A stretch of 64,000 nt of DNA from Sulfurospirillum sp. (GCA_024762875.1 JANTGR010000001.1:45338-109337), one strand, 5' to 3'. Counted from the stretch's first letter, positions 1 through 64,000 are shown. The notes: generated by a model not told the origin, from the letters alone. Program-made: numbers and translations.

Positions 1-430
1 AGGCTGGACTGGCACCAAGCCGACGCATCTGATGAAAGATCGCTCCTCCACTGATCTCTTTCCATTCCCAAACCTTTTCCAAAAATGCTTCACGTCCGAT
101 CTCTTCTTTGCTTGTACCCTGAGAGAGGAGTTGTTTTTCAACTACATTTTGGGTTGCGATACCGGCATGGTCCAAACCCGGCTGCCACAGTGTGCGATAT
201 CCGTCCATCCGCTTGTAACGTGTCATGATATCTTGTAGTGTGAAGGTCAGTGCATGCCCGATGTGCAGTGATCCGGTAACATTGGGAGGTGGCATCATGA
301 TAGAGAAGTTTTTTCCCTCTTCCTGGATAGATTTATTACCGTCTATCTCAAAATAACCTCTCTCTTCCCAGATGCTGTAGTAGCTGTCTTCAACAGCTTT
401 TGGATCATAATTCGTACTTTTGTCGCTCAT
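1..430 (-). CDS. valS: valine--tRNA ligase, N-terminal part (gene continues beyond the left edge of the window)
   Basis: My own minus-strand translation from the ATG at 430-428 gives [31 protein letters not shown]...[53 protein letters not shown]. It has the class I HIGH motif and a ValRS-type N-terminus. It is missing from the ORF track because it is open-ended. Confidence 0.9.
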
Positions 431-489
431 ATTTTGGTACCTTTAGGCAAAATTTTGCGTCATATTACCAAAATGTTGGTTAAAACCTT

Positions 490-855
490 TTACTTGGATT
501 CTGATTCGAGTTGATAGAGATCATCAAGATACTCCAAAAAACGTTTTTTCTGCATATATCCGGGAAACTCTTCCAAAATGGTATTGCCATCAGCGGAGAG
601 TATATAGGTTGTAGGAAAATAGACCGGTTTTAAAAAAAGTGGCATATCACCGCTTTCTCTGACTATCTTGAGTATGATATACTGCTTTTGCAATATCTTT
701 CTTGTGGCGGGATCATCGATGATCTCGCGGTCCATTTTATGACACCAGGGGCACCCTTGCATCACGGTATAGACTAACAGCAGTTTTTTATCCTGGGGGA
801 TTGCATCAGCTAAGAGCTGGGAGAGCAACAAGAAAGTGAGTATGAGCAATTTCAT
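490..855 (-). CDS. periplasmic thioredoxin-fold protein
   Basis: 121 aa. It has a signal-peptide-like N-terminus (MKLLILTFLLLSQLLADA) and a thioredoxin-type CxxC motif (GCPWCHKM). Confidence 0.6.
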   Translation of the reverse strand: MKLLILTFLLLSQLLADAIPQDKKLLLVYTVMQGCPWCHKMDREIIDDPATRKILQKQYIILKIVRESGDMPLFLKPVYFPTTYILSADGNTILEEFPGYMQKKRFLEYLDDLYQLESESK

Positions 856-914
856 GGATATCCTTATAGCTGTTCTAATTGAGAAAAGAGATTTGTTTTT
901 CTTATATTTTTAAG

Positions 915-928
915 TTTATCATGATAAA
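915..928. repeat. copy of the iterated palindrome (14-bp perfect palindrome TTTATCATGATAAA), intergenic
   Basis: Read directly from the sequence. The core TATCATGATA is at 917-926, in the spacer between the thioredoxin-fold gene and the Kef-type antiporter gene. Confidence 0.9.
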
Positions 929-953
929 GATAATTTTTATCTTTAACTCTTTA

Positions 954-962
954 TGCTAAAAT
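954..962 (+). promoter_or_regulatory. putative extended -10 promoter (TGcTAAAAT) for the cation:proton antiporter gene
   Basis: TGCTAAAAT lies 24 nt upstream of the ATG at 986. An AGGGAG Shine-Dalgarno sits at about 976-981. No -35 element is expected in this lineage. Confidence 0.4.
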
Positions 963-985
963 AGTACCACTTATAGGGAGTATGC

Positions 986-2593
986 ATGGAACATCTTTTA
1001 GTCTTATTTTTAGCCACTATTTTGATTGCAACAATTTTAAATGTTTTTTTGAAAAAAGTTGGATTGCCAACGATTATCGGCTATATATTTTCAGGCCTGG
1101 CCATTACTTATATATTTCACCTGCAGGATGTCAATAGCGAATCATTAGAACACATTGCTGAATTTGGTATCGTTTTTTTGATGTTTACTATCGGACTTGA
1201 ATTTTCTATGAATCACTTGAAATCTATGAAAAAAGAAGTCTTTCTTTATGGCTTTTTACAAGTATTTTTATCAGGTGTTGTTTTTACAATTTTGGCTTAT
1301 TTTGTCGCTTCTATGGAGCTAAAAAGCGCTATTGTAGTGGGATTTGCCCTTTCGCTTTCATCAACAGCCATTGTCTTAAAAGTTTTAAATGAAAATAGTG
1401 CCATTCACAGCGGGTACGGGCGTGTGACGCTGGGTGTATTACTCTTTCAGGATTTGGCTGTGATTCCTATATTGTTGATGATTTCTATCTTTACCAACCA
1501 GGATCAGTCTATCAGCTATCTACTTTTCAAGACTATGATTTCGGCAATACTGGTTTTTTTGGTGATCTTTGTCATTGGTAAAATATTTATTGAACGTTTT
1601 TTTGAATGGATTATTCATAGTGACTCAGAAGAGATTTTCTTGATCTCTGTATTGTTGATAGTGGTTGCATCAGCCATGATTGCAGATCTTTTTGGCTTTT
1701 CACTCTCTTTGGGTGCTTTTTTGGCCGGTATGACGATCGCTGAAACGAAGTTTAGATACCGTATTGAAGCAGATCTGGTGCCTTTTCGTGATATCTTGCT
1801 GGGAGTCTTTTTTGTCAGTATCGGGATGCAGATAGATCTGGTGACAGCTTGGGACAATGCCGGTATTATTGCTTTGTTATTGATTGTAGTGATGTTGCTG
1901 AAGGGAGTGATCCTTTTTTCTACCTTGCTGCCGTTTATACAAAAAAGAACAGCGATGAAAACTGCTTTGGCACTTTTTCAAATCGGCGAGTTTTCTCTGG
2001 CTATCTTCTCTTTGGCTTTTAGCAATCATCTCATTGATAAAGGAACGAATCAAACCCTCATTATGGTGGTTGTATTATCGATGATTATAACCCCGTTTGT
2101 TTTAAAAAATATTAAAAAAATCGTTGATCCGCTCTTTGTGGAACCGGAACTCAAAATGGAGTCAATAGAGTCAAGTGGCTATCATGATCATTTGATTATT
2201 TGCGGCTATGGTGATTTGGGACAGAAACTGGCTAAAAAATTTAAACAGCTGCATCTTTATTATGTGATATTGGAACATGATATGAAACTGGTAGAACTGG
2301 GCCGATCAGAGGGACAGCCCATATTGCTTGCAAATGCTGCACAAAAATCTGTCCTGGATGCTGTCAATGTAAATGAGTGTCTTGCTATCATGATAGCGGT
2401 AGACAATGCGAAAAAATTACGCCTTATTTGTGAAAATATCGCTTCATTTGATGCTGATATCAACAGTATAGTTAAAGTACGCAATGCTTCTCATGCAGCT
2501 ATTATCAAAGATTTGCATATCAAACACATTGTGAATCAAAGTGAAGAAATGGCAAAAATTCTGATGAATGAGGCGGTTAAATGTCGGATGTAA
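986..2593 (+). CDS. CPA2 (Kef-type) monovalent cation:proton antiporter with C-terminal KTN/TrkA-N domain
   Basis: 535 aa. The N-terminal ~390 aa are polytopic and hydrophobic (Na+/H+ exchanger type). A Rossmann motif follows (HLIICGYGDLGQKLAKKF, GxGxxG). Confidence 0.85.
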   Translation: MEHLLVLFLATILIATILNVFLKKVGLPTIIGYIFSGLAITYIFHLQDVNSESLEHIAEFGIVFLMFTIGLEFSMNHLKSMKKEVFLYGFLQVFLSGVVFTILAYFVASMELKSAIVVGFALSLSSTAIVLKVLNENSAIHSGYGRVTLGVLLFQDLAVIPILLMISIFTNQDQSISYLLFKTMISAILVFLVIFVIGKIFIERFFEWIIHSDSEEIFLISVLLIVVASAMIADLFGFSLSLGAFLAGMTIAETKFRYRIEADLVPFRDILLGVFFVSIGMQIDLVTAWDNAGIIALLLIVVMLLKGVILFSTLLPFIQKRTAMKTALALFQIGEFSLAIFSLAFSNHLIDKGTNQTLIMVVVLSMIITPFVLKNIKKIVDPLFVEPELKMESIESSGYHDHLIICGYGDLGQKLAKKFKQLHLYYVILEHDMKLVELGRSEGQPILLANAAQKSVLDAVNVNECLAIMIAVDNAKKLRLICENIASFDADINSIVKVRNASHAAIIKDLHIKHIVNQSEEMAKILMNEAVKCRM

Positions 2594-3244: not shown

Positions 3245-4495
3245 CTAAAATTTGTACGATATTCCCGTGCTGATGAGCAGGGCGGCAGCATCTTTGAATG
3301 TGCCGTCTATCTCTGCATTTTGTACGCGTCTTTCATCTTTACTGTCATAGAGGATACTGGCTCCGATTTCTATGGCATCACTGTATTTGTAGCGTACTCC
3401 TCCAGAGAAGAGTGTTGCATCAGAATCAGGCAGTTCAAATCCGATATTTTCCTCAGGTGCCGGGTTTTCATCCACTGCTACAGCACCCATGATGGTTAGT
3501 TTTTTATTGACTTGATGCGTGATACCGACTCTAAATGCATTGGTATCCTGCCAATTTCTCTGCTTTGGTGCATCAAATGCAGCCTGTAAAGCCAAAGGTA
3601 CTGTGTCTTTAAATTGAAAATCAAGTGTTTTATAAGTGGACCAGAAAGTTCTGTCATATTCGAGTTCAAGAACGGTTCCATCAAAATCATAAGAGAGTGC
3701 CAGTGCTGCTACAGCAGGTAGCGGTACTTCTACACTGGCTCCGCCGTCATAGAGTTTTGTCCCGCTGAGATAGAGTTTGGCATTGCCTTCTTCATTGATA
3801 TCTACATTTGAGCGGTATGTTGCTGCGATAGTGAGTGGGGAAACAGGTTTATAGGTAAGTGCCAGATTGTAGCCGTATTCTATCGTATCTGCTTCCATGT
3901 CACGACCTGCAGGTTTATTGATGAGTCCGCCTGAAAGTGCTGTGATCGTCGTTCCGTCACTTTTAACTATTCCTTCACTGTATATCATTCTCAAACCACC
4001 ACCAATGGAAAATTGATCATTCACCTTGTAGGCCATGACAGGATTGAATTCGATAATTTTAAGTGTGAACTCTTCTGCAAAAAGCTTTGCAAAAGCTGAT
4101 CCCCATTTTTTACTCAGTCCCCCTGGAACTGTCATTGAAAAACCATAACGGATCCCGTCGTAATCTTTCGATGTATAGAAAAAAGAAGGAGCAAAAAGAT
4201 TTTCTGCCCCTGATTGTGAGTTTAACAGCGCAGCTCTTGCTGCCTGGCTGTCTGTATAAGTGATTTTACTTAAATTGATATAGGTCAAATCTCCTTCAAT
4301 TTGGTTGGCATTGTCATTGAAAACCATATTGGCCGGGTTATAATAAGCTGTGTCAGCACCATGTGCATTGGCAACATAAGCTGCAGCAAGTGCCGTAGCA
4401 TTCATAGATGATTCGGGCAGTCTGTATCCACTGGCAAAGAGCATGGAAGATGTTAGCAATGAGAGGGCGGTTGTTTTGTATATGATGTTTGTCAT
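3245..4495 (-). CDS. fadL: FadL/OmpP1/TodX-family outer-membrane transporter for hydrophobic compounds
   Basis: 416 aa. It has a signal peptide (LLTSSMLFASG), beta-barrel-like alternating sequence, and an aromatic C-terminal residue (ISYKF). The overall pattern fits the FadL family. Confidence 0.75.
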   Translation of the reverse strand: MTNIIYKTTALSLLTSSMLFASGYRLPESSMNATALAAAYVANAHGADTAYYNPANMVFNDNANQIEGDLTYINLSKITYTDSQAARAALLNSQSGAENLFAPSFFYTSKDYDGIRYGFSMTVPGGLSKKWGSAFAKLFAEEFTLKIIEFNPVMAYKVNDQFSIGGGLRMIYSEGIVKSDGTTITALSGGLINKPAGRDMEADTIEYGYNLALTYKPVSPLTIAATYRSNVDINEEGNAKLYLSGTKLYDGGASVEVPLPAVAALALSYDFDGTVLELEYDRTFWSTYKTLDFQFKDTVPLALQAAFDAPKQRNWQDTNAFRVGITHQVNKKLTIMGAVAVDENPAPEENIGFELPDSDATLFSGGVRYKYSDAIEIGASILYDSKDERRVQNAEIDGTFKDAAALLISTGISYKF

Positions 4496-5772
4496 TATTT
4501 ACTCCTTAATTCTACAAACCATGCAGCCACGGTAGCATAGGCAGGCTGGGCACAGGGTACATGATCGAGTGACGGGCTGATATCTATAGCGGGAACACCC
4601 ATTTTGGCACTTGCAGCAAGTGCCAGACGCGGGTCGATAATAGTATCACCAGAACAGTAATACAACTGTGTCGGTGTTGTTGGCGTATAATCATCTACAC
4701 TGTTGTTAACAAAGTCAACTCTTAATGCATTGTTGGCATTAGTCAGGAAATCACCTCTAAAAGCAGGTACGAAAAAGTCTGCAATTGAGTTGGTTAATTG
4801 TGCCTGGATAAATTCTTTGGTTTTTGTCAAATCTGCTGCATCATATAAAGTAGGCAGTATAGTGTCATACGGCGTAGCCAGGATTTCACTTAAATTATAG
4901 TCATATGTTTTGGCATATGAGTTGATGATACCACCGATAAAGTCTGGTCTTGCCATGCTGTCTTGGCTGACTACACCCATACCGGTCAAGTTCAAATCGT
5001 ACGGTCCGGACATGGGTGCTACGCCCGCGAGGTGGATATCTGGCTGGTTGGCTTCAATCTCTTTAGCTGCCGCCAGTGTCACATAGCCGCCTTCAGAATA
5101 ACCTGTAAGATAGACTTGCCCGTTTAAAGGCAAATTGCTGTCTGTTCCAAATGCAAGTGTCGCTTTGATCATATCAATGACAGGTGAGGCAGACTCTTTT
5201 TCTATAAAGTAGGGATGTGTAGTTGTTTTTGATTCACCATAACCGATCAAATCAGGCTGCACTGTAATGAATCCTGCCACAGCAGAAAAAAGTGTACCTG
5301 TTGCACTGGGCTTGTGCGTCATAATGACTTCTGTAGTAGGAGCCTCGTTATCAGGGAAAATTGTTCCGTGCTGATCACTGACGATAGACATAGAGTAGTC
5401 TTGATGCTTTGCAGCTAAACCCGCAAGTATAGTTTGGCTGGGCACTGGTATGGTAACCAGTCCTGAGACATTGATCTCTTCACCTTTGAGATTGTGTGTT
5501 TTATAGACCATTCTGAAACCTTTGATACCAAAAGCAGGTTGCGGGGGAGTCGATTCATTGACGTCCACAGTGGTGGGATCATCTGCTTTTTGTGTTAAAG
5601 CAGTCACCGTTGGCTGCATCGTGGATGCATTGATGTCAAAAAGCGGTGTCATACTGATCAACTGGGCATCTCCTACAATATTATTGTCTTTGTTGTCAAT
5701 GCCACAGCCGCCAAGCAGCCAAGCTGTCAATGAAACTGTAAACAGCAAACCTGATTTTTTCATTTCTATCAT
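4495..5772 (-). CDS. secreted lipase/esterase-like alpha/beta hydrolase lipoprotein
   Basis: 425 aa. It has a lipobox (AWLLGGC) and a nucleophile elbow (GYSEGG). An AGGAG Shine-Dalgarno lies 5 nt upstream of the ATG at 5772. That ATG is the central ATG of a palindrome copy. Its stop overlaps the fadL-like start by 1 nt. Confidence 0.6.
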   Translation of the reverse strand: MIEMKKSGLLFTVSLTAWLLGGCGIDNKDNNIVGDAQLISMTPLFDINASTMQPTVTALTQKADDPTTVDVNESTPPQPAFGIKGFRMVYKTHNLKGEEINVSGLVTIPVPSQTILAGLAAKHQDYSMSIVSDQHGTIFPDNEAPTTEVIMTHKPSATGTLFSAVAGFITVQPDLIGYGESKTTTHPYFIEKESASPVIDMIKATLAFGTDSNLPLNGQVYLTGYSEGGYVTLAAAKEIEANQPDIHLAGVAPMSGPYDLNLTGMGVVSQDSMARPDFIGGIINSYAKTYDYNLSEILATPYDTILPTLYDAADLTKTKEFIQAQLTNSIADFFVPAFRGDFLTNANNALRVDFVNNSVDDYTPTTPTQLYYCSGDTIIDPRLALAASAKMGVPAIDISPSLDHVPCAQPAYATVAAWFVELRSK

Positions 5773-5852
5773 GATAACTCCTAAAAATTTATATTAAAAA
5801 ATATTATAATGATACAGAAAGCTTCATTAAATCTTTGCTTTACCGATATAAT

Positions 5853-6751: not shown

Positions 6752-8248
6752 TTATATGAAAGTAGGGGCATCATTGGAGAAGAGTATAAGATCTCCACTG
6801 GCTGTATGCTGGCTTAACGTCTCTTCCATGCGTGATTTGTCTTTTAAGAGCAGTTTTTTTGCCTTTTTGATTTCACGGTAGAGTACCTCAGCATTGGTAC
6901 TGCCGGTAATGATCACAGTATCAAAAATGCTGTCCATGATATGAGCAAGTTTGCTGTTACTTGCTTCATCACTTTCGATGATACCTGGAGTGATGAGTAT
7001 CTTGCGTCCTGGAAATTGGCGTACCAGTTCATACGAAGCACGCATCCCCTCAAAGTTTCCATTAAAACTGTCATCAATGATGAGTTTTCCTCCCGCTTCT
7101 ATCTTTTGTAAGCGATGTTCTACCTGTTTTAAGCCTAAGAGTGCTTTTTTGATTTGCGGTATTTCCAGCCCCAGTTCTCTGGCTATCATGATAGCCGCTG
7201 TGAGGTTGATAGCATGAAAGGCACCCAGGAGTGGTGCTTGAAAAGATTCTTCTTTGCCATCGATAGTAAGATCAAAGTGTAAGCCTTCCAATGTTGCTTC
7301 GATATTTGATATATTGTTTCCGTAGAGTGTCACTTTTTCATTTGGTTTGACGTTAGCACTTTCGTGTACAAAAGCTTTTTTGAGTTTGTTGGAATTGAGT
7401 ATTTCCATTTTGGTGTCCCGGATGTTTTGCAGGGTTTTAAAATATTCGATATGCTGGGCACCAATGCTGCCGACGATAGCATAGTCTTCATTTAAAAAAC
7501 GTGCAATTTCATCGATATCACCTCTTGCTCTTGCACCTGCTTCCGCGATATAAATCTGGGTACGCAGCGGGAGTTCTTCGTTGACATCCCGTACCAGCCC
7601 ACCCAGGGTATTGACAGAGCGGGGTGTCATATAGGTTGCAAATTGTGCAGAAAGGATTTGGTAAAGAAAGTTTTTGATACTGGTTTTACCATAGCTGGCT
7701 GTTATAGCGATGATACGCAAATCTTTCATACTGTGGAGCTTTTTTTGTGCCTCTTTTTTAAAACTTAAAAAAAGAAATTTTTCAAACAGATAGCTGGCAC
7801 CCACTGCAGCAACAAGTGGTAAAAAAACACCATCAAGCTGACAGCGCTGACTGACCAGGCAGAGAATATCCTGAAAAATAACGGCCAATGCCAAAAAGAG
7901 AAAAAAGCGTTTGACACGGGGTGTGTAAACCAATTTTTTATCGATCTTTTTTTGCCATAGATATAAAGCTGGCAATAGCCCCAGATAAAAATAGACCCAA
8001 AAATAAAGACCCATTTCAAAATGAAACATCATATAATAGGCAAAAAGCGGCACAACAAAATAAAAAATATGCCACTGCACTTTTTTGTGTTTGAAAAGTA
8101 CCCGTTCGAGTTTATAACTGTACCATTGCAGATTGGTAATAAGATACCAGCCCAGGGTGAGGGTAAAGAGTATATGTGAAAAGAGAGTCAATAATTTAAT
8201 GCTTTGCATGAAGTTCCTTATAAATTTGCTCTTGTATAAAAGCAGCAT
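6752..8248 (-). CDS. murF: UDP-N-acetylmuramoyl-tripeptide--D-alanyl-D-alanine ligase with N-terminal membrane domain
   Basis: It has a Mur-ligase central domain (IAITASYGKTSIKN) and a C-terminal domain (LIIDDSFNGNFEGM). The first ~165 aa are hydrophobic TM segments. An alternative start exists at 8209 (MQSIKLL). Confidence 0.85.
   Translation of the reverse strand: MLLLYKSKFIRNFMQSIKLLTLFSHILFTLTLGWYLITNLQWYSYKLERVLFKHKKVQWHIFYFVVPLFAYYMMFHFEMGLYFWVYFYLGLLPALYLWQKKIDKKLVYTPRVKRFFLFLALAVIFQDILCLVSQRCQLDGVFLPLVAAVGASYLFEKFLFLSFKKEAQKKLHSMKDLRIIAITASYGKTSIKNFLYQILSAQFATYMTPRSVNTLGGLVRDVNEELPLRTQIYIAEAGARARGDIDEIARFLNEDYAIVGSIGAQHIEYFKTLQNIRDTKMEILNSNKLKKAFVHESANVKPNEKVTLYGNNISNIEATLEGLHFDLTIDGKEESFQAPLLGAFHAINLTAAIMIARELGLEIPQIKKALLGLKQVEHRLQKIEAGGKLIIDDSFNGNFEGMRASYELVRQFPGRKILITPGIIESDEASNSKLAHIMDSIFDTVIITGSTNAEVLYREIKKAKKLLLKDKSRMEETLSQHTASGDLILFSNDAPTFI
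7181..7196. repeat. copy of the iterated palindrome extended to a 16-bp perfect palindrome GGCTATCATGATAGCC (inside murF)
   Basis: Read directly from the sequence. On the minus strand it encodes AAIMIAR in MurF. Confidence 0.9.
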
Positions 8249-8924
8249 GTTTTAAAAAAAAGTAGTGATCGCCCTCCAATGGGAAAAAAGAGTTCTCAGG
8301 TATCAATGCAGCTATCTTCTCACCTGTAAAAAGCGGTGTGGCACTGTCATCTTTTCCCCAAAAGAGTAAAGCTTTTTTTTGAAAATGGCTAAAATGCGCT
8401 GAAAAGTCTTCATCTACGACATTTTTGAATGTTTTATACATCGCTTCACTCATACCTTCAACATCTTTGGAAACAAAAAAACGGCGTAAGCTGCTGATAC
8501 CAAAAGGTTTCAAGAGTTTAAAAAGTTTGATTTTTGCTCGTACTTTAAATGACTTGGGTACTATAATACCGGCAGAACTGAGCAAGACCAGCAGATCCGG
8601 ATTGAGCAGGGTGGCAACTTTGCCGCCAAAGGAGTGCCCAAATACGACAGCAGGCTGCACATCCAGCTCTTCTAAAAATTGTATCATGATAGCGGCATAA
8701 TCATGGGTGGTCAATACCGTCTCGTTTGGACTTTTACCAAAGCCCGGCATATCAATATAGAGATGCCTGTGATCTTTAAAATAGTTGCCAAAAGCACTTT
8801 TCATGACTTCTTTGTTACTGCCCCAGCCATGCAGGATGATGATAGTTTCTTCTATCTTTGGATGTATAATCTCATAGTTGATATTGTAGGATATGCCCTG
8901 ATATAGTATCTGCCTGTTTGCCAT
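8196..8924 (-). CDS. alpha/beta-fold hydrolase
   Basis: 242 aa. It has an HG oxyanion motif (ILHGWGS) and a nucleophile elbow (GHSFGG). Confidence 0.75.
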   Translation of the reverse strand: MANRQILYQGISYNINYEIIHPKIEETIIILHGWGSNKEVMKSAFGNYFKDHRHLYIDMPGFGKSPNETVLTTHDYAAIMIQFLEELDVQPAVVFGHSFGGKVATLLNPDLLVLLSSAGIIVPKSFKVRAKIKLFKLLKPFGISSLRRFFVSKDVEGMSEAMYKTFKNVVDEDFSAHFSHFQKKALLFWGKDDSATPLFTGEKIAALIPENSFFPLEGDHYFFLKHAAFIQEQIYKELHAKH

Positions 8925-16198: not shown

Positions 16199-16232
16199 TG
16201 TCATGATAGCTGTAACTATACTATCATGATAG
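16199..16232. repeat. pair of iterated-palindrome copies in an intergenic spacer
   Basis: TgTCATGATA at 16199-16208 matches 9 of 10 positions. CTATCATGATAG at 16221-16232 is a perfect 12-bp palindrome. The centre-to-centre spacing is 23 bp. Confidence 0.85.
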
Positions 16233-40051: not shown

Positions 40052-40063
40052 TTATCATGATAA
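40052..40063. repeat. copy of the iterated palindrome (12-bp TTATCATGATAA), intergenic
   Basis: Read directly from the sequence. It lies between the purL start and the stop of the response-regulator gene. Confidence 0.9.
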
Positions 40064-48594: not shown

Positions 48595-49859
48595 TAAAGA
48601 GCCTGATATGCAATATCGTTTCTAAATTTTTTACCAAAGAAATGAACTTGTCCAGCCAGCATATAAGCATTGTCTCTGGCTTCCTGTATGCTCTCACCCA
48701 GCCCGACACAGACCAATACCCTGCCGCCTGTAGCAAAAAGTTTGCCTTCTTCTTTTGTCACCCCGGCATATGCGATATGGGCTTTGTTTTGAAGGTTTTC
48801 ATGCACAATATCATCTACCACAATTTCAGCGGGCATGGAGCTTTTATAAGGATAATCCTTGCTTGCCATCACCACACCTACAGAGAACTGGTCAGATATT
48901 TTGATATCCAGCGATTTGAGATCTTTCGTCGCCCCTTTGTAAAACAGGTCAAAAACAGAGCTTTTGATCAAAGGCATCAATATTTCACATTCCGGGTCAC
49001 CAAAACGGACATTGTATTCCAGAACTTTTACGGCGCCACCCACTATCATGATACCGATAAACAGTACACCTTCAAAAGGCATGCCCTCTTTTTTCATACC
49101 GGCAAGTGTAGGAATGACCACTTTTTCATCAATCTCCTGATATAAGGCTTCGTTTATCAGTGGTGTTGGGGCATATGCACCCATTCCCCCGGTATTTGGC
49201 CCTTTATCATGATCGAGCAATCTTTTATGATCCTGCGCTGCTGGTAATATTTTGAAATCTTCACCATCACAAATAGCAAAAACAGAGAGTTCATATCCAT
49301 CCAGATACTCTTCTACAATGATGGCTTTTCCTGCATCACCAAAACTCTCTCCGCTGAGCATACCCTGGGCTGCAGACTTAGCTTCTGCATGGCTTTGCGC
49401 GATAATAACACCTTTGCCTGCACAAAGACCGTCTGCTTTGACAACAATAGGGGCAGTCAGCGTATCGATAAAGGCTGATGCTTTTGCCAAGTCGTCAGTT
49501 TCAATAAAACGTGCTGTAGGGATGCCATATTTTTGGAGGAAGTTTTTCATAAATATTTTTGAGCCTTCAAGCTGACTGGCAGCTTTGCCTGGTCCAAAAA
49601 TCGTTAAACCTTTTGCTTTAAAGATATCCACAACACCATCAACCAATGGAGCCTCCGGCCCGACAATCGTCAAATCAACAGCATGTTCTTTGGCAAAATC
49701 AGCCAAAGCATCATAATCTTTTATATCAAGGTTCTCACCAAGTTTATCTGTGGCACCATTGCCGGGAGAAAAATAGAGCTTTTTTACTTTTTCTTCTTTT
49801 TTCAGCGCTAAAGCTATTGCATATTCTCTACCGCCGCTACCTATGATTAAAACATTCAT
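48594..49859 (-). CDS. purD: phosphoribosylamine--glycine ligase
   Basis: 421 aa. It reads [19 protein letters not shown], has an ATP-grasp domain, and ends with a C-terminus typical of PurD. Confidence 0.95.
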
Positions 49860-50731: not shown

Positions 50732-51646
50732 TTAGTGAAAAATCTTTATGATAGCAGTGAGAGATTTTATCTTATCATGATAATGTTTGGCAACATCGAA
50801 TGTAAAATGATCAAACACGGAAACAGCAAAAGGATTTGTTTGATGATAATAAGCAATGTAGATATGATCTTTGGTATAAGAAACAGCCACCGCTTTGTTT
50901 TGAAGCGGTATCAGTTGCTGTAGTGTGGTATCATTTATATCCCCATACAGTGTCCATCCCTGCACTTTTTTGCTTCTAGTGCTATCAGCAAAGAATGCCT
51001 GCATCACCAGATTGTTTTTAGCAACCAGCTGTGAGAGTTTTTCACTTACCACTATACCTTCATGGTGATTGCTGCGAGAAATAGTGACAATAAAACCATC
51101 AAAAACATTTTGGTTAAAACGTTCTACCGCTGCATTTTCTTTGGTACTGAAAAGCAAATGTACATAGGCAAATGAAGCATTATCAGCCTGATAAATATCA
51201 TCAGATTGCAACACTTTGATTGATGGTGCAAAAAGATGAGTATGGCTTAATTGCTCTTTGCTAAGTTTATTGTCTGTATAGTGAAAGCCCTCTGTTTCCG
51301 TAATGGGGGAAATAATCTTTTTTTTATAGAGGGTTTCATAAGCCACAATATTTGGAGCGGAATTTCGAAGTGTCAGATAACCCGCTGCTATCATGACAAG
51401 GGCTACAATCACACCGGTAAGTTTAAAAAATTTGGCAAAAAGAATAAAGATAAAAAGTGCAGCTACGCCTGAGACGATATAAGCGGTTTTTCTTTTTGCT
51501 GCAGCTTCTTTGACATTTTGCAGTGCAGTATAGGCTGGCTGCAGTGTTTGTTGATAGAGCTGATTGAGTTCAGGTTCAGAGGCAGTGCCTTGTAGTGGTG
51601 CGAACATGAAGGTAAACAACAGAAAAGTTTTGAGAAAATATTGCAT
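50732..51646 (-). CDS. hypothetical membrane protein (possibly DUF3137-like)
   Basis: 304 aa. It has a signal-like N-terminus and two adjacent TM helices (aa ~55-95), followed by a soluble domain. The family assignment is from memory only. Confidence 0.45.
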   Translation of the reverse strand: MQYFLKTFLLFTFMFAPLQGTASEPELNQLYQQTLQPAYTALQNVKEAAAKRKTAYIVSGVAALFIFILFAKFFKLTGVIVALVMIAAGYLTLRNSAPNIVAYETLYKKKIISPITETEGFHYTDNKLSKEQLSHTHLFAPSIKVLQSDDIYQADNASFAYVHLLFSTKENAAVERFNQNVFDGFIVTISRSNHHEGIVVSEKLSQLVAKNNLVMQAFFADSTRSKKVQGWTLYGDINDTTLQQLIPLQNKAVAVSYTKDHIYIAYYHQTNPFAVSVFDHFTFDVAKHYHDKIKSLTAIIKIFH

Positions 51647-51701: not shown

Positions 51702-53240
51702 TTATTCCCACTCTATGGTTCCTGGCGGTTTAGATGTGATATCATAGACAACGCGATTGATACCATCCACTTCATTGATGATACGGCTGGAGATGGTATC
51801 AAGCAGATCATGCGGCAAATGTGCAAATGTAGCCGTCATACCATCAACACTTTCCACCATCCGTACACAAACAGTATTGTCATAGGTACGGTTATCACCC
51901 ATAACGCCGACACTTTTAACATTGAGCAAAACACAAAATGCCTGCCATACTTTATCATAATAGCCATTGGATTTCAAAACATCTATCATGATAGTATCTG
52001 CTTTTCGAAGCAGCGACAAATCAGGCTGATTGACTTCTCCCATGATGCGGATCGCCAGACCAGGTCCTGGGAAAGGGTGACGACCAATCATATCTTTGGG
52101 TAATCCCAGCTCAAGTCCCAGTTTTCGCACTTCATCTTTAAATATTTCTCTGAGCGGTTCAATCAGTTCAAACTGCATCCAATCCGGAAGACCACCGACA
52201 TTGTGATGGGATTTAATCGTTTTACTTGGCCCTTTGACAGAGACAGATTCTATGACATCAGTGTAGAGTGTGCCTTGTGCCAAAAAAGAGATCCCATCAT
52301 GCCTTTGTGCCTCTTTGTCAAAAACTTCAATGAAAGTTTCGCCAATGATTTTACGTTTTTTCTCCGGATCAGTTACACCGGCCAATTTAGAGATAAACTC
52401 TTCCGATGCATCGACAGTGATAAGCTCTGCACCAACACGATTTTTAAACATCGCTTCGACCTGTGCCCTTTCATTGGCCCTCAGCAGTCCCTGATCTACA
52501 AAAACCGGTACGAGCTGATCACCGATTGCCTCATGTAAAAGCGTTGCAACAACAGAACTGTCCACACCGCCGCTGACACCGCAGAGAACTTTTTTGTCTC
52601 CGACTTTTTCTTTGATCTTTTGAATCTGCTCTTTGGCAAATGAACCCATATTCCAGGTAGATTCACAGCCGCATATTTTTTTAGCAAAATTTTTCAGTAA
52701 AATAGTGCCAAATTCAGAATGATAGACTTCCGGATGAAACTGAAATGCATAAATTTCTGCTTCCGTACTTTTAATAGCAGCATAGGGTGAATTGTCAGAG
52801 TATCCTACCCGGATAAAATTTTCAGGCAGCATATCCACAAGGTCCCCATGACTCATCCAGACAGTTTGACCATCTGGTGTATCATCAAAAAGATGACAGG
52901 TGTCTTCAAAATGCAGCTGTGCTTTGCCATATTCATGATGGTCAGCAGGGATAACCACACCACCAAAGTGCTGTGTAAGAAGCTGCATGCCATAACATAT
53001 GCCAAGGATAGGAAGGCCAAGTTCAAATATGGCATTGTCAGGATGATAGGCATTTTTATCATACACAGATGCAGGTCCGCCTGAAAGGATGATTCCTTGA
53101 GGCTGTTTTTCTTTGATAGTCTCTATTTTTTCATTATAAGGGAGGATTTCACAGTAGATACCGCTTTCTCTGAGTTTTCTGGCAATAAGCTGTGTATATT
53201 GCGATCCAAAATCTAATACGATGATGGGGACATTTTTCAT
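51702..53240 (-). CDS. guaA: glutamine-hydrolysing GMP synthase
   Basis: 512 aa. It has a GATase domain (GICYGMQ), the ATP-PPase P-loop motif SGGVDSSV, and a C-terminus ending in PPGTIEWE. Confidence 0.95.
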
Positions 53241-56688: not shown

Positions 56689-58472
56689 CATTAGAAAAGA
56701 AGATACAGCAGCTGCCGCCCCTGCCCGGTGTGTACCAATATTTTGATGCGAATGATAAATTACTCTATATCGGTAAAGCAAAAATTTTGAAAAACCGTGT
56801 AAAAAGTTATTTTAGATTTCAGCCGCAATTCTCCCCTGCTCCCAATCTCTCACCCCGTATCGCTATCATGATAGGTGAAACAGTACGATTGGAATATATC
56901 GTAGTAGAGAGTGAACATGATGCCTTGATTTTAGAAAATTCTCTCATAAAGCAGCTGCGGCCGAAGTATAATATCCTGCTGCGTGATGATAAAACCTATC
57001 CTTACATTTATATCGATTTAAACGATGCTTTTCCCCGTTTTGAAATTACCCGTAAAGTCCTTAAAGGCAAACAGATAAAATATTTTGGTCCTTTTTCCCA
57101 GTCTGCCAGAGAGATAGTGGATTCACTTTATGACATTTTTCCACTTGTGCAGAAAAAATCCTGTCTGAAAGGTAAAAAGCTCTGTCTTTTTTATCAAATC
57201 AAAAAGTGTTTGGGACCCTGTGAAGGTAAAGTGAGTGAAGCAGTCTATAAAAAAATGGTGGATGAAGCGATGCATCTGCTTTACAATAAAAAGGCACTGC
57301 AGCAGAAGCTGGAGAAAAAAATGCTTTTTTATGCTGAAAATCTTTTATTTGAAGAAGCCAGCCGTCTGCGGGATCGCATCAATAAGATAAAAGCGAGTCA
57401 GAGTATCTCTCACATCGATTTGGCAAAACTCGCGGATTATGATATTTTTGCTATTGAAACTGCCAAAAACAGTGCCTGTGGAGTACGGCTTTTTATCCGT
57501 GACGGAAAGGTTGTTTCCAGTGCACACTCTCTTTTTAAATCAGATACAGGGTTTGACCGTGATGAACTCTACAAAAGGCTTTTACTGGAGTATTATCATC
57601 AGGAATTACCGATGGTTAAAAATATATTGGTGTATGAAGATTTTGATGAAAAAGAGAGTCTTCAGAATTTGCTCAGTGATCGTTTTGGCAAGTCTATCAT
57701 GATAAACATTCCCCAAAAAGGTGAAAAAAAACATTTAGTCAACTTGGCACATACCAATGCAAAAGAGATTTTACGGACAGGGAAAAACCAGGACAATACA
57801 ATCTTGTCAGAACTTAAAACACTGTTTAATTTAGATAAAACACCTTTTGTCATAGAAGGATATGACAACTCACATTTACAGGGCGAAGCGACTGTAGGAG
57901 CGATGATAAAATGGGAAAACGGTTTTTGTAAAAAAGCGTACAGGCACTACAATCTCAGTGCACGTGACGAGTATGCCCAGATGAAAGAGATGCTTGAACG
58001 CCGTTGTGAAAGTTTTGATAAAAATCCTCCACCTGATTTGATGGTGATCGATGGTGGAGAAACACTGTTGAAATTGGCGATTAAAATAGTTAAACAAAGT
58101 GGTGCTAATGTCGATATAGTTGCAATTGCAAAAGAGAAGCGGGAAAACAAGGCGCAAAGAGCCAAAGGAAAAGCAAATGACATCCTTTGCAGCAAAGAAG
58201 GAATCCTGAAATTATCACATGATGATAAAAGGCTGCAGTTTCTGCAAACGATACGAGATGAATCACACCGTTTTGTGATTGCATTTCATCGTAAGCAAAA
58301 ACGCAAAGCAGATAAAGAGATTTCATTATTGGCTAAAAAAGGTGTGGGCGAAGCCACTGTCAAAAAACTTTTGCAATATTTTGATACATTTGGCAATATT
58401 GAAAATGCAAGCTTTGAAGAATTGGAAAAGGTTGTTGGCACAAAAATTGCTTTAAATATTCAAAATATTTAA
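56685..58472 (+). CDS. uvrC: excinuclease ABC subunit C
   Basis: 595 aa. It has a GIY-YIG domain (PGVYQYFDANDKLLYIGKAKILKNRVKSY), a UVR domain, an RNase H-like endonuclease domain, and a C-terminal (HhH)2 motif. Confidence 0.95.
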   Translation: MTLEKKIQQLPPLPGVYQYFDANDKLLYIGKAKILKNRVKSYFRFQPQFSPAPNLSPRIAIMIGETVRLEYIVVESEHDALILENSLIKQLRPKYNILLRDDKTYPYIYIDLNDAFPRFEITRKVLKGKQIKYFGPFSQSAREIVDSLYDIFPLVQKKSCLKGKKLCLFYQIKKCLGPCEGKVSEAVYKKMVDEAMHLLYNKKALQQKLEKKMLFYAENLLFEEASRLRDRINKIKASQSISHIDLAKLADYDIFAIETAKNSACGVRLFIRDGKVVSSAHSLFKSDTGFDRDELYKRLLLEYYHQELPMVKNILVYEDFDEKESLQNLLSDRFGKSIMINIPQKGEKKHLVNLAHTNAKEILRTGKNQDNTILSELKTLFNLDKTPFVIEGYDNSHLQGEATVGAMIKWENGFCKKAYRHYNLSARDEYAQMKEMLERRCESFDKNPPPDLMVIDGGETLLKLAIKIVKQSGANVDIVAIAKEKRENKAQRAKGKANDILCSKEGILKLSHDDKRLQFLQTIRDESHRFVIAFHRKQKRKADKEISLLAKKGVGEATVKKLLQYFDTFGNIENASFEELEKVVGTKIALNIQNI

Positions 58473-60199: not shown

Positions 60200-60222
60200 C
60201 ACTCATAGGGGAATTAAAGAAG

Positions 60223-63200
60223 ATGAAAATTAAAAATAATTTAAAATTAATAACCATTGTACCAATTGTCTTGTTGACACTGGTATCGGGTTATTTTTTA
60301 GTAAAAGCGTATCAAAACTACAGTGACAATCAGCAGATTACAAAGCTTGCTTATGAAAGTAAGCTGCTCAAGTCTCTCTCTATCAATTTAGCCAGAGAAC
60401 GTGGACTCAGTACACTCTATACCTTAAGTAAACAAGAGAAAACGCAAAGCCTGTTACAGAAGCAAAGAGCCAGTACAGACCAGGCCGTGCAATATGTCAA
60501 GCAATACTATCATACCCATTCTCCTTCACCACTCGTAGAGAGTAAAGTTTTGACCAAATTAAATGCTTTAAACAGCATCCGGGAAAAATTAAACGATTTT
60601 GCACTGCGCTATGAATCTTCATTTGCCTACTTTGACACTATTAACAGTGCAATTATCCAGGAAATTCAATCTACACTGAAGAGTCAAAAAAATGTCCAAA
60701 TCAATAACCTAGCTCTTGGTTATACTAAAACGATGCAATTGATGCGGGCAGTATCCAATGAACGAGACTATGTCACCAATGTCTTGAGCAATTCTACCCA
60801 AAAAGAGCCTCTTTTGCTTTTAAATATCTTTCAAAACAGCAGTATCAAGCCGGCTATAGACAGTCTGGATGAAGAGACAAAAGCAGATTTGAAAGAAGTG
60901 TTAAATGAGCGGGAGTTATTAACAGTCATCAAAGAGACGCAGGAGATGAAGAAAGAACTGCTGCAAAGTAATAATTATACTATTAACCCCATAAACTGGT
61001 TTACCAAAGAGACACAAAAAATAATGTCAATCAATAAAGTGACCAATAGTATATTCAATAAAATCGAAAATGCATTGACCGAGAGTCAAAATCAGTCCTA
61101 TTTATTGGCTGCCATTGCAGGGCTGTTATTTTTGTTGTCACTTTATATGTTATATACCTATAAAAAGTTTTATGAGTATCTATACTCAACCAAAGGGTTG
61201 GAAGGTATTTTAAATAAAATTATTGATTATGCCCTGATTGAAGATACAATAGATTTGGGAACAACTGAAGGTATCGACAAGACGTATTCTGTGATTGAAA
61301 ATACAGTAGATAAAATTGCTGTTGAAAAAAGAAAAGCAGAAAGATCCAATGCGGCCAAAAGTATCTTTTTAGCCAATATGTCCCATGAAATACGTACGCC
61401 TATCAATGGAATCATCGGTTTTACAGAACTCCTTAAGAAAAGTGACCTGGGTGAGGAAGAGAAAGAGTATGTCGATATCATTGACAAAAGTACTGAAAAC
61501 TTACTGGAGATCATCAACAATATCCTTGACCTTTCAAAAATAGAGAGTAAAAAAATAGAATTGGATGAGATACTTTTCTCACCGGTAGAAGAGTTTGAAA
61601 ATGCAGTCGATGTCTATATGCCAAAAGCAGCAAGCAAAAATATCAATCTTTCGCTGCTGATGGATCCTGGATTTGACAATTATCTGCTGGGTGATGGTGT
61701 TAAAATCAAAGAAATCCTGTTAAACCTGATTTCCAATGCTATCAAATTTACACCAGAAAATGGCCAAATATCTGTTTTGATCAAAAATCTTTCACAGCCT
61801 CAAGATGTAAAACAAAAGATCTATTTTGAAGTGAGTGATTCTGGAATCGGAATCAGTGAGGAAGAGATGTCTGATATCTTTGATGCCTTTTCTCAGGCTG
61901 ATTCGACCATCACAAGAAAATACGGCGGAACCGGACTCGGATTGACGATTTCATCTAATTATGTTTCACTGATGGGCGGTAAATTGGAAGTAAGCAGTAA
62001 AAAAGATGTAGGCAGTAATTTTTACTTTACAATTGAATTACAAAAAGAAAAACCACTGAAAGTCAGTCAAAAAAACAGATTTTCAACGATGCATGCTTTG
62101 ATACTCTCTGCAAATAACAAACTGCTCTGTGAAGAAGAAAAAGCGTATATGCAATATTTTGGCAGCAAAGCCGCTGTTATGAGTCTGAATGAATTTAAAA
62201 AAATCAAGCCGGATAAAAATACAATCATCATTGCGCAGTATGCCACCTTGAAAAAAGCAGATTACAGTTATCTCAAAGAACAAAAACAGCCGGTTATCAT
62301 GATCATGCCGACCAAGTATCATACCAGATTGTCTGAATATAGAACCAAGAGCGTTTTCCCGACCTTTGAGCCAGTCAATCTATCCAGATTTGTCAAGGTG
62401 TTAACTGATATCGCTACCAAATATCATATCAACTTTGTTCCGGAAATCAGTGATCAAAAAATACCTGTCAAAAAACGCAGCAATAAAATAAAAAGAGAGA
62501 TTTTGATTGCGGAAGACAATGAAATAAACCAAAAACTCTTAAGTCGGATTATCAAAAATTTTGATTTGAATGTCAGTTCTGTCGTAAATGGCAAAGAGGC
62601 GGTAGAAGCTGTTAAAAATGGGCATTTTGATCTGATATTTATGGATATTGCGATGCCGGTAATGGATGGTGTCAGTGCGACCAAAGCCATCATCGCTTAT
62701 GAAAAAGCACAAGGTGTGGAGCATACACCTATTGTTGCATTGACAGCCAATGCACTCAAAGGGGATAAAGAACGCTTTTTAAACGATGGTTTGGATGATT
62801 ATATCGCCAAGCCGGCAAAAGAAAAGGATATCAAAGCCGTTTTGGAAAAATATGATATAACACTCAATATCAGTGATGCAGAGCGTGCAGCGGCAGAAGA
62901 AGAATCCGAAGTTGAAGCAGTGCCGCCGGCAGTTATCTCTGATCCATTAGCCAAACAAAAAGAGATGAAAAATATTCTTGTGTATAAAAAAAGCAAGGTA
63001 GAAACCAAAATATTTGAAAAAGTACTGAGTAAAGATTATGATGATATTGAAACAGTCAATGATCTGGAGACGTTCTTTACAAAACTGCGTGATAATGTCT
63101 ATCGTGTGGTAATGGTTGATAAAGAAATCGAGGGGCTGGATCTTCGTGTGATGCTTGATAACATTGAAGAGCGGGATAGAACTGCCCTGCTTTTGTTTAG

Positions 63201-63309
63201 AAGTTTTGATTCTATTATAGATGATCAAATGAGACGGGAGTTTGATGAGGTACTAATCAACAGTGCGGATCAAACCTATCTCAAGCTTATCCTGGACAAT
63301 TACCTCTAA
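60223..63309 (+). CDS. hybrid sensor histidine kinase (NIT-like sensor, HisKA, HATPase_c, receiver, extra receiver-like domains)
   Basis: 1028 aa. It has an N-terminal TM helix and a sensor region with NIT-like motifs ([23 protein letters not shown]), then a second TM helix. The H-box is [19 protein letters not shown], and the N/G boxes are [15 protein letters not shown] and GGTGLGL. The REC domain reads [11 protein letters not shown]...[14 protein letters not shown]...KPA. Confidence 0.9.
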
Positions 63310-63316
63310 ATAAAAC

Positions 63317-63344
63317 TATCATGATAAAAGCTCTATCATGATAG
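63317..63344. repeat. two perfect copies of the iterated palindrome 17 bp apart in a convergent intergenic spacer
   Basis: TATCATGATA occurs at 63317-63326 and at 63334-63343, the second within CTATCATGATAG. The pair fills most of the 46-bp gap between the kinase stop (63309) and the minus-strand gene stop (63356). Confidence 0.9.
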
Positions 63345-63355
63345 TGGCAGGATGT

Positions 63356-64000
63356 TTATTGGGAAGGTGTATCCTTTTTGCCATGAGCATAGATATATGC
63401 ATATAAATCAGCAACCCATTCCTTTTTTACATTTTCCACATGGGGACAGATATTGTGTACTTCATGAACAAAACTTTCTACGTTTCTAAGCTCTTCCCAC
63501 TCTGTCTGTGTGTGTTTTTCTGCAAGTTCTCTGCCCGTCATACCGCAGCGTTTTTGTAAATAGTCCTCGTAGATTTTTTGGCCGCGCTGCTGGTCATCAC
63601 TGATAATTTCCATTTGTGCTTTTGCCACTTCAACTGCAGCAACAGATTGTGATATTTTGGCCAAGGCATCTGCCTGTGCAACTTTGACAGCACCTACTGA
63701 TTCTGCCATCGTTTTTGCTGCCACAGCTTTCGCATCTGCCAACTCTTTGGAATCTTCACCATAAAGTCTTTTATTCATCTCTACCACAGCTATACTCTTG
63801 GACATCTTGACAGCAGCATCAGCTTTGACCTCTTCAACATCTGCCATGGAATGAGCTATTTTGCCTTTTTCCTGTTCTTTTAACGCTTCAATTGAAATAG
63901 CTGGTCTTGGATTAGTGGCTGCCCTGGCTGCTTCTACAGAGTTGACGGAGGCAGCGATGGTTGCAGCAGCTGCAGCCTGGGCTGCTTTCACCTCATGAAC
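63356..64000 (-). CDS. hypothetical Ala-rich repeat protein with Cys-containing C-terminal domain (partial; frame stays open to the window edge)
   Basis: The frame is open upstream of the GTG at 63991 (VHEV...). The protein has Ala-rich amphipathic repeats (SVNSVEAARAA, SIAVVEMNK, SVGAVKVAQADALAKISQSVAAVEVAKAQ). The C-terminus reads GQKIYEDYLQKRCGMTGRELAEKHTQTEWEEL...HNICPH, which is cytochrome-c-like in layout but has no CxxCH. Confidence 0.45.
   Translation of the reverse strand, partial: VHEVKAAQAAAAATIAASVNSVEAARAATNPRPAISIEALKEQEKGKIAHSMADVEEVKADAAVKMSKSIAVVEMNKRLYGEDSKELADAKAVAAKTMAESVGAVKVAQADALAKISQSVAAVEVAKAQMEIISDDQQRGQKIYEDYLQKRCGMTGRELAEKHTQTEWEELRNVESFVHEVHNICPHVENVKKEWVADLYAYIYAHGKKDTPSQ

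Follow-up and report, generated by a model that had tools for sequence, protein, structure and literature searches.

A Hyper-Abundant Palindromic Word in One Clade of Uncultured Campylobacterales and Its Possible Role as a Self-DNA Tag

The Locus and the Word

The stretch of DNA analyzed here, referred to as the window throughout, comprises 64,000 nucleotides from Sulfurospirillum sp. (GCA_024762875.1 JANTGR010000001.1:45338-109337) with a G+C content of 37.5%. Coding sequence makes up about 94% of it, in about 58 genes. The genes are all of the ordinary housekeeping kind and include kefC-like, glyS, htpG, ilvIH, lpxD, rnpA-yidD-yidC-mnmE, rmuC, flgH, purL, pnp, lptD, purD, guaA, uvrC and a gene for a hybrid histidine kinase. 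Dispersed among them, 25 copies of the perfect 10-bp palindrome TATCATGATA were found by exact search, the same number as in the initial annotation of this DNA, in which 23 of the 25 coordinates were exact and two were displaced by 10 (correctly 37898 and 56864, not 37908 and 56874). We regard it as practically certain that this is a real, hyper-abundant word which is maintained at the DNA level throughout, and is diagnostic of, a single deep-branching clade of uncultured Campylobacterales.

The word exceeds chance about 100-fold, in genes and in spacers alike. In 100 dinucleotide-preserving shuffles of the window it occurred 0.12 times on average and at most once, which agrees with the 0.2 copies first estimated from base composition. 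With both strands counted, 50 copies are seen where Markov models of orders 0-4 give 0.3-2.2, and the excess survives at orders 0 to 5. The maximal-order model, in which 49.5 copies are expected and 50 observed, is uninformative because almost every TATCATGAT or 9-mer of the word occurs only inside the word; the Markov tests were therefore made at lower orders. TATCATGATA is the top 10-mer of the window, and its inner part, ATCATGAT, is the top 8-mer. Highly iterated palindromes (HIP), the class of the cyanobacterial word HIP1, are palindromes at least 10 times more frequent than composition predicts, among the commonest words of their genomes and dispersed in coding and non-coding DNA without flanking homology, and all of this was found for TATCATGATA (17 genic and 8 intergenic copies).

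The enrichment emerges only with length. CATG, with 232 copies in the window, is at expectation; TCATGA has 63 copies, and the 29 that lie outside ATCATGAT are at background, the same rate as in outgroups. ATCATGAT itself occurs 34 times where about 2-4 are expected, and 25 of the 34 carry the T...A extension that completes the 10-mer. The preference extends one base further on each side, since 24 of the 25 copies have a pyrimidine at -1 and 23 have a purine at +1, the same counts as those first reported. This flank preference is not imposed by codons, because all eight intergenic copies are also of the Y..R type. The element is a 12-bp degenerate palindrome, YTATCATGATAR. Beyond -1 and +1 the flanks hold at most 0.19 bit of information, so the copies are not parts of a longer repeat. 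Shared extended flanks or intergenic insertions, by which a miniature inverted-repeat transposable element (MITE), a repetitive extragenic palindrome (REP) or a tandem or local duplication would be recognized, were not found.

Near-matches are enriched as well. The window contains 21 one-mismatch variants of TATCATGATA, in keeping with the earlier figure of at least 15, although four of the positions given for them were off by 10 (the true ones are 28457, 46427, 47264 and 55648). In the window and its closest GuaA relative (L001, described below) together, 25 one-mismatch neighbors were counted vs. 8.9 expected, about 3-fold, mostly transitions and changes at outer positions; over-represented are TGTCATGATA (7 vs. 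0.37 expected), CATCATGATA (4 vs. 0.65) and TATTATGATA (4 vs. 0.58). Words subject to molecular drive have been described as showing such enriched near-matches (PMC1939737).

Such neighbors could also be produced by a methyltransferase-linked repair ratchet, as put forward by Elhai for HIP, in which a methyltransferase acting on TCATGA or CATG, together with methylation-sensitive repair or nicking, would convert near-matches into a word that is itself functionless. The core TCATGA/CATG is a classic Type II target, the words of neighboring lineages (AGATCT/GATC, GGTACC and AGTACT, see below) likewise, the enriched neighbors are mainly transitions, and a pattern linking variant HIPs and methyltransferases was reported by Elhai (PMC4390886). 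We nevertheless consider this explanation quite unlikely, since the enrichment needs 10-12 specified bases and TCATGA outside ATCATGAT stays at background. The signature of very-short-patch (VSP)-type repair, a depleted C-to-T neighbor, was not observed; that neighbor, TATTATGATA, is enriched instead, and neither a methyltransferase nor a Vsr-like gene was seen in the available clade DNA. Many Campylobacterota are without methyl-directed repair of the MutL/MutH type, which would also count against the ratchet.

Gene Context of the Copies

Seventeen of the 25 copies lie within genes, on both strands, and eight are non-coding or on a start codon. By a crude call of open reading frames the non-coding share of the window is about 6%, rather than the tenth assumed when the eight copies were first noted, and the non-coding copies are about 5-fold in excess over that share. 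The genic copies use two reading frames, ATC-ATG-ATA (Ile-Met-Ile) in nine cases and TAT-CAT-GAT-A (Tyr-His-Asp-Lys/Arg) in eight; the third frame, which would contain TGA, is not used.

Ile-Met-Ile copies are found in the KefC-like gene (2386-2395, ..AIMIA..), in a Mur-ligase-like gene at 6752-8248 on the minus strand (7184-7193, within the 16-bp palindrome GGCTATCATGATAGCC at 7181-7196), in an alpha/beta-hydrolase gene at 8196-8924 on the minus strand (8682-8691, the sole copy with G at -1), and in the minus-strand genes flgH (35988-35997) and purL (37898-37907). Tyr-His-Asp copies are found in a HAD hydrolase gene (2818-2827, ..YHDR..), glyS (18338-18347), lpxD (28185-28194, within the 14-bp palindrome CTTATCATGATAAG), mnmE (33437-33446), rmuC at 33901-35124 on the minus strand (34404-34413) and the gene of an OmpR-type response regulator at 40076-40822 on the minus strand (40651-40660). 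The remaining genic copies, in pnp, purD, guaA, uvrC and a gene of unknown function, are described below with their orthologs.

Among the copies outside genes, that at 917-926 lies between the divergent genes of a thioredoxin-like protein (490-855, minus strand) and the CPA2/KefC-like protein (986-2593, plus strand), as part of the 14-bp palindrome TTTATCATGATAAA. Two copies supply an ATG start codon, at 5767-5776 for the minus-strand gene 4495-5772 and at 25484-25493, after htpG (which ends at 25480), for the plus-strand gene 25488-25919. Further copies are located 3' of the plus-strand gene 14837-16153 and 5' of glyS (16222-16231), 11 bp 5' of the rmuC start (35135-35144), and between the start of purL and the end of the response-regulator gene (40053-40062). 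The last two, at 63317-63326 and 63334-63343, form a pair 7 nt apart that follows straight after the stop codon of the histidine kinase gene (63309) and lies between convergent genes. The extended palindromes that had been listed for this DNA, at 915, 2384, 28183 and 35133 (14 bp) and at 7181 (16 bp), are all correct.

The word could also be an operator bound by a transcription factor that controls many genes, since it is a 12-mer with dyad symmetry, is enriched 5-fold in spacers and has some copies near promoters or over start codons; the same 10-mer does occur in local operator- or promoter-like clusters of some phage contigs. Two thirds of the copies (68%), however, are within unrelated housekeeping genes, and the intergenic ones, located at gene starts, after stops and between convergent genes, show no consistent distance or orientation. 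Sites in promoters at a consistent position, as a regulon has them, were thus not found, and one copy per 1.5-2.6 kb is denser than any known regulon; an operator is very improbable. The genic spread, the uninformative flanks and the presence of the word in relatives bear out the earlier view that it is neither a regulon nor a MITE nor a local duplication. No regular spacing of the 25 copies was detected in the window. Their coefficient of variation is 0.86 and random placement is not rejected (P = 0.29), so that "spread fairly evenly", as the copies had been described, overstates what is merely random spacing.

Copies lie in or beside uvrC and rmuC, which could be expected of a Chi-like recombination hotspot for AddAB/RecBCD that protects and repairs self DNA, with a palindrome acting in both orientations. 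Chi sites are indeed over-represented genome-wide oligomers acting in recombination, and a Chi-like effect is one interpretation of the HIP1 transformation data. An enrichment in DNA-repair genes, as reported for the DNA uptake sequence (DUS), is not significant in these data, the numbers being too small (uvrC has 1-3 copies per clade genome, rmuC one inside and one upstream). Chi sites are 5-8 nt long, asymmetric, orientation-dependent and enriched only few-fold, as in Escherichia coli with 1008 copies vs. 151 expected (table in PMC1939737), whereas the excess of the present word is above 100-fold; a palindrome is also unfit for Chi function because orientation dependence is impossible for it. 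We therefore hold a Chi-like role to be highly unlikely.

Pressure at the DNA Level and Its Footprint in Proteins

What keeps the word in place is pressure on the DNA, which prevails over protein sequence. Nine (82%) of the 11 IMI tripeptides encoded in the window are spelled ATC-ATG-ATA, where codon usage predicts 9.4%, and all 11 YHD tripeptides are spelled TAT-CAT-GAT, followed by A in eight. Both tripeptides are enriched in the window proteome, IMI 3-fold (11 vs. 3.2 expected) and YHD 11-fold (11 vs. 1.0). It was reported that uptake sequences roughly double the tripeptides they encode and sit at poorly conserved residues (PMC2817400), and both features, inflated tripeptides and copies at poorly conserved residues, were found here.

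Comparison with orthologs from up to 80 relatives revealed that the word arose through amino-acid replacement at the motif sites. In purD (49044-49053, minus strand) G[LV]M[IV] of the outgroups became GIMI, and in guaA (51984-51993, minus strand) AIMQ, present in 52 of 80 relatives, became TIMI. Two copies are located in uvrC; at 56864-56873 the sequence AIMI replaced [LI]KML (50 relatives are of the [LIVY]KML type), and at 57695-57704 SIMI replaced the KIxI type of the outgroups. In pnp (42833-42842, minus strand) YHDK stands where relatives have YK or YQ (YKxx), a copy specific to the window lineage, and the YHDK copy at 50773-50782, in an unknown gene at 50732-51646 on the minus strand, is window-specific as well. 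The footprint in UvrC coincides exactly with the clade: all 20 UvrC clusters of at least 75% identity to the window protein contain 1-3 IMI, and none of the 40 clusters examined at 70% identity or below does. Point substitutions have been shown to create the word wherever coding tolerates it, in the I-M-I and Y-H-D-[KR] frames, at ATG starts, in ATGA overlaps, in spacers and in hairpin stems.

These data also bear on explanations that involve no dedicated element at all, namely codon or peptide bias, local duplication, MITE or REP elements, footprints of transposon excision (TA-TCA/TGA-TA) and assembly artifact. The word does spell common codons (TAT, CAT, GAT, ATC and ATG). Codon usage, however, accounts for 9% of the IMI spelling against the 82% found, and the peptides themselves are enriched, only in this clade; the flanks are uninformative beyond the first base on either side, and the word is found in independent assemblies and missing from relatives of the same G+C content. 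The form TA-TCA-TGA-TA would suit the excision footprint of a mariner/IS630-type element. A transposon footprint was rejected, for the genic copies align with their orthologs without gaps and differ by substitutions, not by 8-bp insertions. Codon bias, mobile element, excision footprint and artifact are refuted by the codon statistics, the gap-free orthologous alignments and the independent assemblies, and the absence of any dedicated element is scarcely credible.

Distribution among Campylobacterales

A GuaA-based scan with one genome per species yielded 80 Campylobacterales loci. The closest, L001 (89% protein identity), has nine copies of the word in 17.2 kb, and the word is its leading over-represented 10-mer. 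Among the other 79 loci the word is absent from 76, and two (L030 and L069) have one copy each. A UvrC search placed the window protein among about 20 clusters at 75-100% identity, after which identity drops to 70% or less. Four loci from these clusters carry 15 copies in 21.8 kb (L239), 12 in 21.8 kb (L241), 9 in 16.7 kb (L243) and 9 in 14.4 kb (L246), and the word is the top 10-mer of each; no copy was found in the outgroup loci L244, L245, L247 and L248. Density across the six clade genomes is 3.9-6.9 per 10 kb, with 5.4-6.9 in the four UvrC-cluster loci. One copy per 1-2.5 kb throughout a clade and absence from distant relatives, as is characteristic of uptake sequences, thus describe the word.

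Over about 17 kb of synteny, DNA identity among the six genomes is only 69-80%, with the window as the most divergent and basal member. Given this divergence and the basal position of the window, the word is old. It is not confined to the window as part of a local duplication, being present in five other clade genomes and about 13 metagenome contigs, and it is not a general property of AT-rich genomes, being missing from about 75 related AT-rich Campylobacterales loci, including relatives with the same G+C content. The proposal made from the window sequence, that a genome-wide word family similar to HIP1 or to uptake sequences exists in a member of the Campylobacterota, is supported.

The metagenome contigs came from a scan for closely spaced pairs of the word, in which most of the 120 matches were isolated pairs or longer repeats. 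The dispersed word was present in about 13 contigs only, with 74 copies at other genome positions; their G+C content is 0.32-0.44, mostly 0.36-0.41. The flanks follow the same rule as in the window (Y in 67 of 74 and R in 59 of 74), the genic copies fall into the same two frames (21 and 27, with none in the third), and several copies lie on start codons or ATGA stop/start overlaps. Across these sets, the word has been recovered in independent NCBI, JGI and Logan assemblies.

Two contigs, L218 (62-606) and L137 (159-508), were left out of the metagenome set, as they carry the 10-mer inside longer repeats, one of which is ttcccgagattatcTATCATGATAaatatttgtgtttt, repeated seven times. A recurrent three-site arrangement with 24+11 bp spacing was seen in samples Ga0209122, Ga0209149, Ga0209428 and Ga0056xxx. 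The longer repeats that bear the 10-mer probably come from unrelated organisms, as repetitive or mobile elements. The pair scan of viral sequences gave nothing but tandem repeats, local pairs that resemble operators and one cluster of phage promoter type, with GGTATCATGATACC upstream of TATAAT, all of them distinct in nature from the dispersed word. In the IMG/VR phage contigs L098 (443-2147) and L102 (520-2207), about 14 copies in the form GGTATCATGATACC occupy 2 kb of non-coding DNA, often followed by a -10-like cctataatataa box; this cluster looks like a promoter or operator family unrelated to the dispersed word. Two other top words were rejected, that of L069 (235-2566) as thrombospondin-type, Asp-rich, Ca-binding coding repeats with a period of 66 nt and that of L037 (2172-2267) as a perfect, coding 12-bp x 8 tandem repeat.

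Conservation and Pairing of Copies

In the alignment of the window with L001 (72% identity), four of six window copies and four of nine L001 copies are at orthologous positions, while 6.9% of all aligned 10-mers, or 10% of those with the same G+C content, are conserved (P about 3e-4). In the alignment of the six genomes, at about 70% DNA identity, the purD copy at 49044 and the guaA copy at 51984 are kept in all five genomes covering the site and the uvrC copy at 57695 in all six; IMI is present at this last site in 19 of the 20 clade UvrC clusters. Two more sites are occupied in all clade genomes but the window, and others are patchy. An existing copy has thus been shown to be preserved far better than other 10-mers, and the retention of orthologous copies above control words is also a feature of the HIP class.

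Gains and losses can be followed at single sites. The uvrC copy at 56864 is common, within the clade, only to the basal window and the nested L001 (P0004 and P0014 by protein); since a lysine codon like that of the outgroups is retained in the genomes between them, it was likely gained in parallel. The decaying or nascent copies that the initial annotation had suspected among the near-matches do exist. A one-mismatch copy at 51389-51398 (TATCATGAcA) is perfect in L239 and L241 and represents a decayed or unfinished site, and another at 62295-62304 (TATCATGATc) is perfect in L239, L243 and L246.

Conservation well above background is also what a chromosomal binding site of an abundant intracellular protein would show, where the protein has a nucleoid, chromosome-organizing or repair function and the density of sites is selected for structure. 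A perfect dyad of 10-12 bp is typical of the sites of dimeric DNA-binding proteins, the word occurs on both strands and in all gene classes, and a role in nucleoid structure has been argued for HIP1 (PMC5861425). We consider such a site unlikely, though it deserves more weight than the ratchet discussed above. Spacing in the window is the same as random, although 64 kb is too short for the 10-90 kb periodicity of HIP1, and scans of the window genes gave no candidate protein. By itself, this explanation leaves two things unexplained, the different word of the nearest outgroup and the copies that were made at the cost of replacements in conserved enzymes.

A lone 10-bp palindrome without a spacer cannot fold by itself. 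The window pair, over 63317-63343, can form a 12-bp hairpin, and a pair occurs at the same place after the histidine-kinase gene in L241 and L246. In L241, L246, L215, L189 and L125 the two copies together with a few further complementary bases give stems of 12-16 bp; folding energies of the pair regions are -15 to -28 kcal/mol, and a T-run follows the stem in L246. From these sequence features, pairs located 3' of genes are predicted to be terminator-like hairpins. In Neisseria, inverted pairs of DUS act as terminators. The hairpins of DUS pairs are also discussed in PMC1939737.

Different Palindromes in Neighboring Lineages

The nearest outgroup is L244 (1-21791; JGI 3300045637, Ga0486129_000182), with 68% UvrC identity. 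It is without TATCATGATA, and in its 21.8 kb TAGATCTA occurs 19 times vs. 0.9 expected and AGATCT 48 times vs. 7.5 (order-0 expectations). Seventeen of the 19 TAGATCTA copies are in the frame xTA-GAT-CTA ([ILV]-Asp-Leu). L247 (UvrC cluster P0021, 70% identity to the window) has nine AGATCT in 6.6 kb. Two cases are weaker. In L003, GGTACC occurs nine times vs. 0.86 expected, with six copies of TGGTACCA (2354, 6660, 7647, 10259, 11925 and 12228), and in L008 TAGTACTA occurs six times vs. 0.34 expected (2783, 5537, 9979, 11560, 12965 and 19602); these palindromes may be further lineage-specific words.

The cores of the neighbor words (AGATCT/GATC, GGTACC and AGTACT) are classic Type II targets and are flanked by T(A)...(T)A. 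Different words with Type II cores therefore suggest a shared mechanism with a replaceable specificity module. The same situation, variant HIPs paired with their methyltransferases, was described by Elhai (PMC4390886).

Comparison with Known Systems

To our knowledge, Chi, uptake sequences and HIP1 are the only recognized classes of hyper-abundant bacterial words. The present word is not HIP1, DUS or the uptake signal sequence (USS) by sequence or lineage, yet it is of the same kind, and it matches HIP1 and the uptake sequences in every computable respect. A full-text search of the literature yielded no relevant mention of the 10-mer or the 8-mer, and no paper that ties iterated palindromes to Campylobacterota.

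HIP1 (GCGATCGC, in cyanobacteria) is likewise a short perfect palindrome, 15-300-fold over-represented where the present word is above 100-fold, dispersed over genes and spacers without flanking homology and conserved above control words. Mismatches at outer positions, a core that is a classic methyltransferase target and related lineages with a different palindrome are shared as well, and so is a debated role, transformation or uptake being now favored for HIP1. The word differs in being AT-rich and longer (10-12 vs. 8 bp), in its phylum and in its confinement to one narrow clade, where HIP1 spans nearly an entire phylum. No methyltransferase was found for the present word in about 250 kb of clade DNA. 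Not being GCGATCGC in cyanobacteria, it is an analog of HIP1 and not a member.

With the DUS of Neisseriaceae (a 12-mer) and the USS of Pasteurellaceae (a 9-mer core), the word shares a length of 9-12 nt, a density of one per 1-2.5 kb, location in genes with enrichment in spacers, inflated tripeptides at poorly conserved residues, inverted pairs that give terminator-like hairpins, enriched one-mismatch copies and lineage-specific variants. DUS and USS, however, are asymmetric while the word is a perfect palindrome, and for them uptake bias, a receptor (of ComP or ComN type) and competence have been demonstrated, whereas for the word all three are predictions. The AGATCT of the neighbor lineage is, moreover, an unrelated sequence and not a graded "dialect".

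A precedent within the phylum is provided by Campylobacter jejuni, in which uptake is described as restricted to DNA that is methylated at the palindrome RAATTY (PMC10046745, with reference to Beauchamp 2017). This CtsM signal, RA(m6)ATTY, is a palindromic self-DNA signal for transformation with a Type II-like core. RAATTY is a degenerate 6-mer, in contrast to the 10-12 specified positions of the word, and no report of RAATTY as a hyper-abundant word was found. Methylation belongs to the C. jejuni system and may belong to this one; no CtsM-like enzyme was found in the clade DNA.

Proposed Function

The reading that we favor, tentatively and with a probability of about 0.4, is that the word is a self-DNA tag of natural transformation which is spread by biased uptake and homologous replacement. 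It is favored because the word shows published hallmarks of uptake sequences, namely a footprint in proteins, copies at variable residues, a surplus in spacers, terminator-like pairs and enriched near-matches (PMC2817400, PMC1939737), and because of the C. jejuni precedent in the same phylum and the HIP1 transformation data; methylated HIP1 lifts cyanobacterial transformation up to 100-fold, and HIP1 is now proposed as an uptake sequence.

From the exact dyad over 10-12 bp we infer that a symmetric, presumably dimeric protein would read the word in double-stranded DNA. Such a reader would most likely be part of the natural-transformation pathway and mark DNA as self, and it may recognize a methylated TCATGA/CATG core. 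Fragments bearing the word would be preferentially taken up or recombined, better-matching alleles would be over-transmitted (molecular drive), and copies would build up to about one per 1.5-2.6 kb. The specificity module may be swappable, as with a Type-II-like methyltransferase, which is suggested because the nearest outgroup is loaded with TAGATCTA/AGATCT instead. A further reason for this reading is that sister lineages could readily come to differ in their whole word if its specificity resided in an exchangeable methyltransferase or reader.

Several points weigh against a transformation tag. Neither Pfam and NCBIfam scans of all 58 window genes nor a regular-expression screen of all available clade DNA, about 250 kb, for N6A, N4C and C5 methyltransferase motifs revealed a gene for a competence receptor, a DNA methyltransferase or a restriction enzyme. 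The sequence examined was the 64-kb window, about 90 kb of largely orthologous DNA and 69 kb from contigs ascertained by word pairs, so that relatives contributed about 160 kb. The protein with a phosphoribosyltransferase (PRTase) domain at 43672-44445 was considered as ComF and rejected as not ComF-like. The hosts are uncultured metagenome-assembled genomes, whose competence is presumed. The known uptake sequences, DUS and USS, are asymmetric and not palindromes, and we know of no Type II methyltransferase with a specificity as long as 10-12 bp. Outside the extended word, TCATGA and CATG do not exceed background, so that a methylated core is by itself no sufficient explanation of the word. 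Finally, conservation, proteome footprint and restriction to the clade are equally predicted by an intracellular function.

It is possible, if doubtful, that uncultured Campylobacterales hold a whole family of fast-switching, lineage-specific, hyper-abundant palindromes, each of which is a methylation-dependent self-DNA tag of transformation; its members would be TATCATGATA here, TAGATCTA/AGATCT in the nearest outgroup and perhaps words built on GGTACC and AGTACT in other lineages. If so, this would be the first uptake-signal system of the phylum to leave a genome-wide word and a bridge between HIP1, DUS/USS and CtsM/RAATTY, and independent switches of specificity would let phylogenetic profiling find the reader and writer proteins.

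The function of HIP1 has been linked to transformation only now, after 30 years, and the present word adds an independent case, just as extreme, from a different phylum. Its sharp clade boundary, its footprint in protein sequences and a sister lineage with a different word provide a comparative handle; methyltransferase, pilin, ComE-like or DNA-binding genes that switch together with the word could reveal the machinery and test palindromes as self-DNA tags. The word is also a diagnostic marker for binning and classifying the clade in metagenomes, and it would provide a design rule for any future genetic system, namely to include, and perhaps methylate, it in transforming DNA.

Additional Sequence Observations

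A second palindrome, CCTGCAGG, occurs five times in the window (1120, 3906, 16696, 28341 and 31711) vs. 0.61 expected and is missing from the five clade relatives examined; CTGCAG has 33 copies in the window. CCTGCAGG may be a weak second palindromic word of the window lineage. GATATC is 3-9-fold over-represented in many Campylobacterales loci (L008, L019, L043, L048, L056 and L239), with 49 copies vs. 15 in the window, which is probably an Asp-Ile codon-pair effect and not a dedicated word.

In L013 (1-17122), CATG occurs only six times in 17 kb, where other relatives have 2-4 per kb, a scarcity characteristic of DNA that avoids cleavage by a CATG-specific restriction system. A fusion of DinB_2, FGE-sulfatase and methyltransferase domains is located 3' of the syntenic block in L239 (21739-21788), L241 (19927-21788) and L242 (13646-15507). 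It is an OvoA/EgtB-like protein of thiol-histidine biosynthesis, and its methyltransferase acts on small molecules, not on DNA.

The rnpA-yidD-yidC-mnmE cluster occupies 29623-33817 of the window. In many bacteria this cluster lies close to the replication origin, and the window may, by analogy, be origin-proximal.

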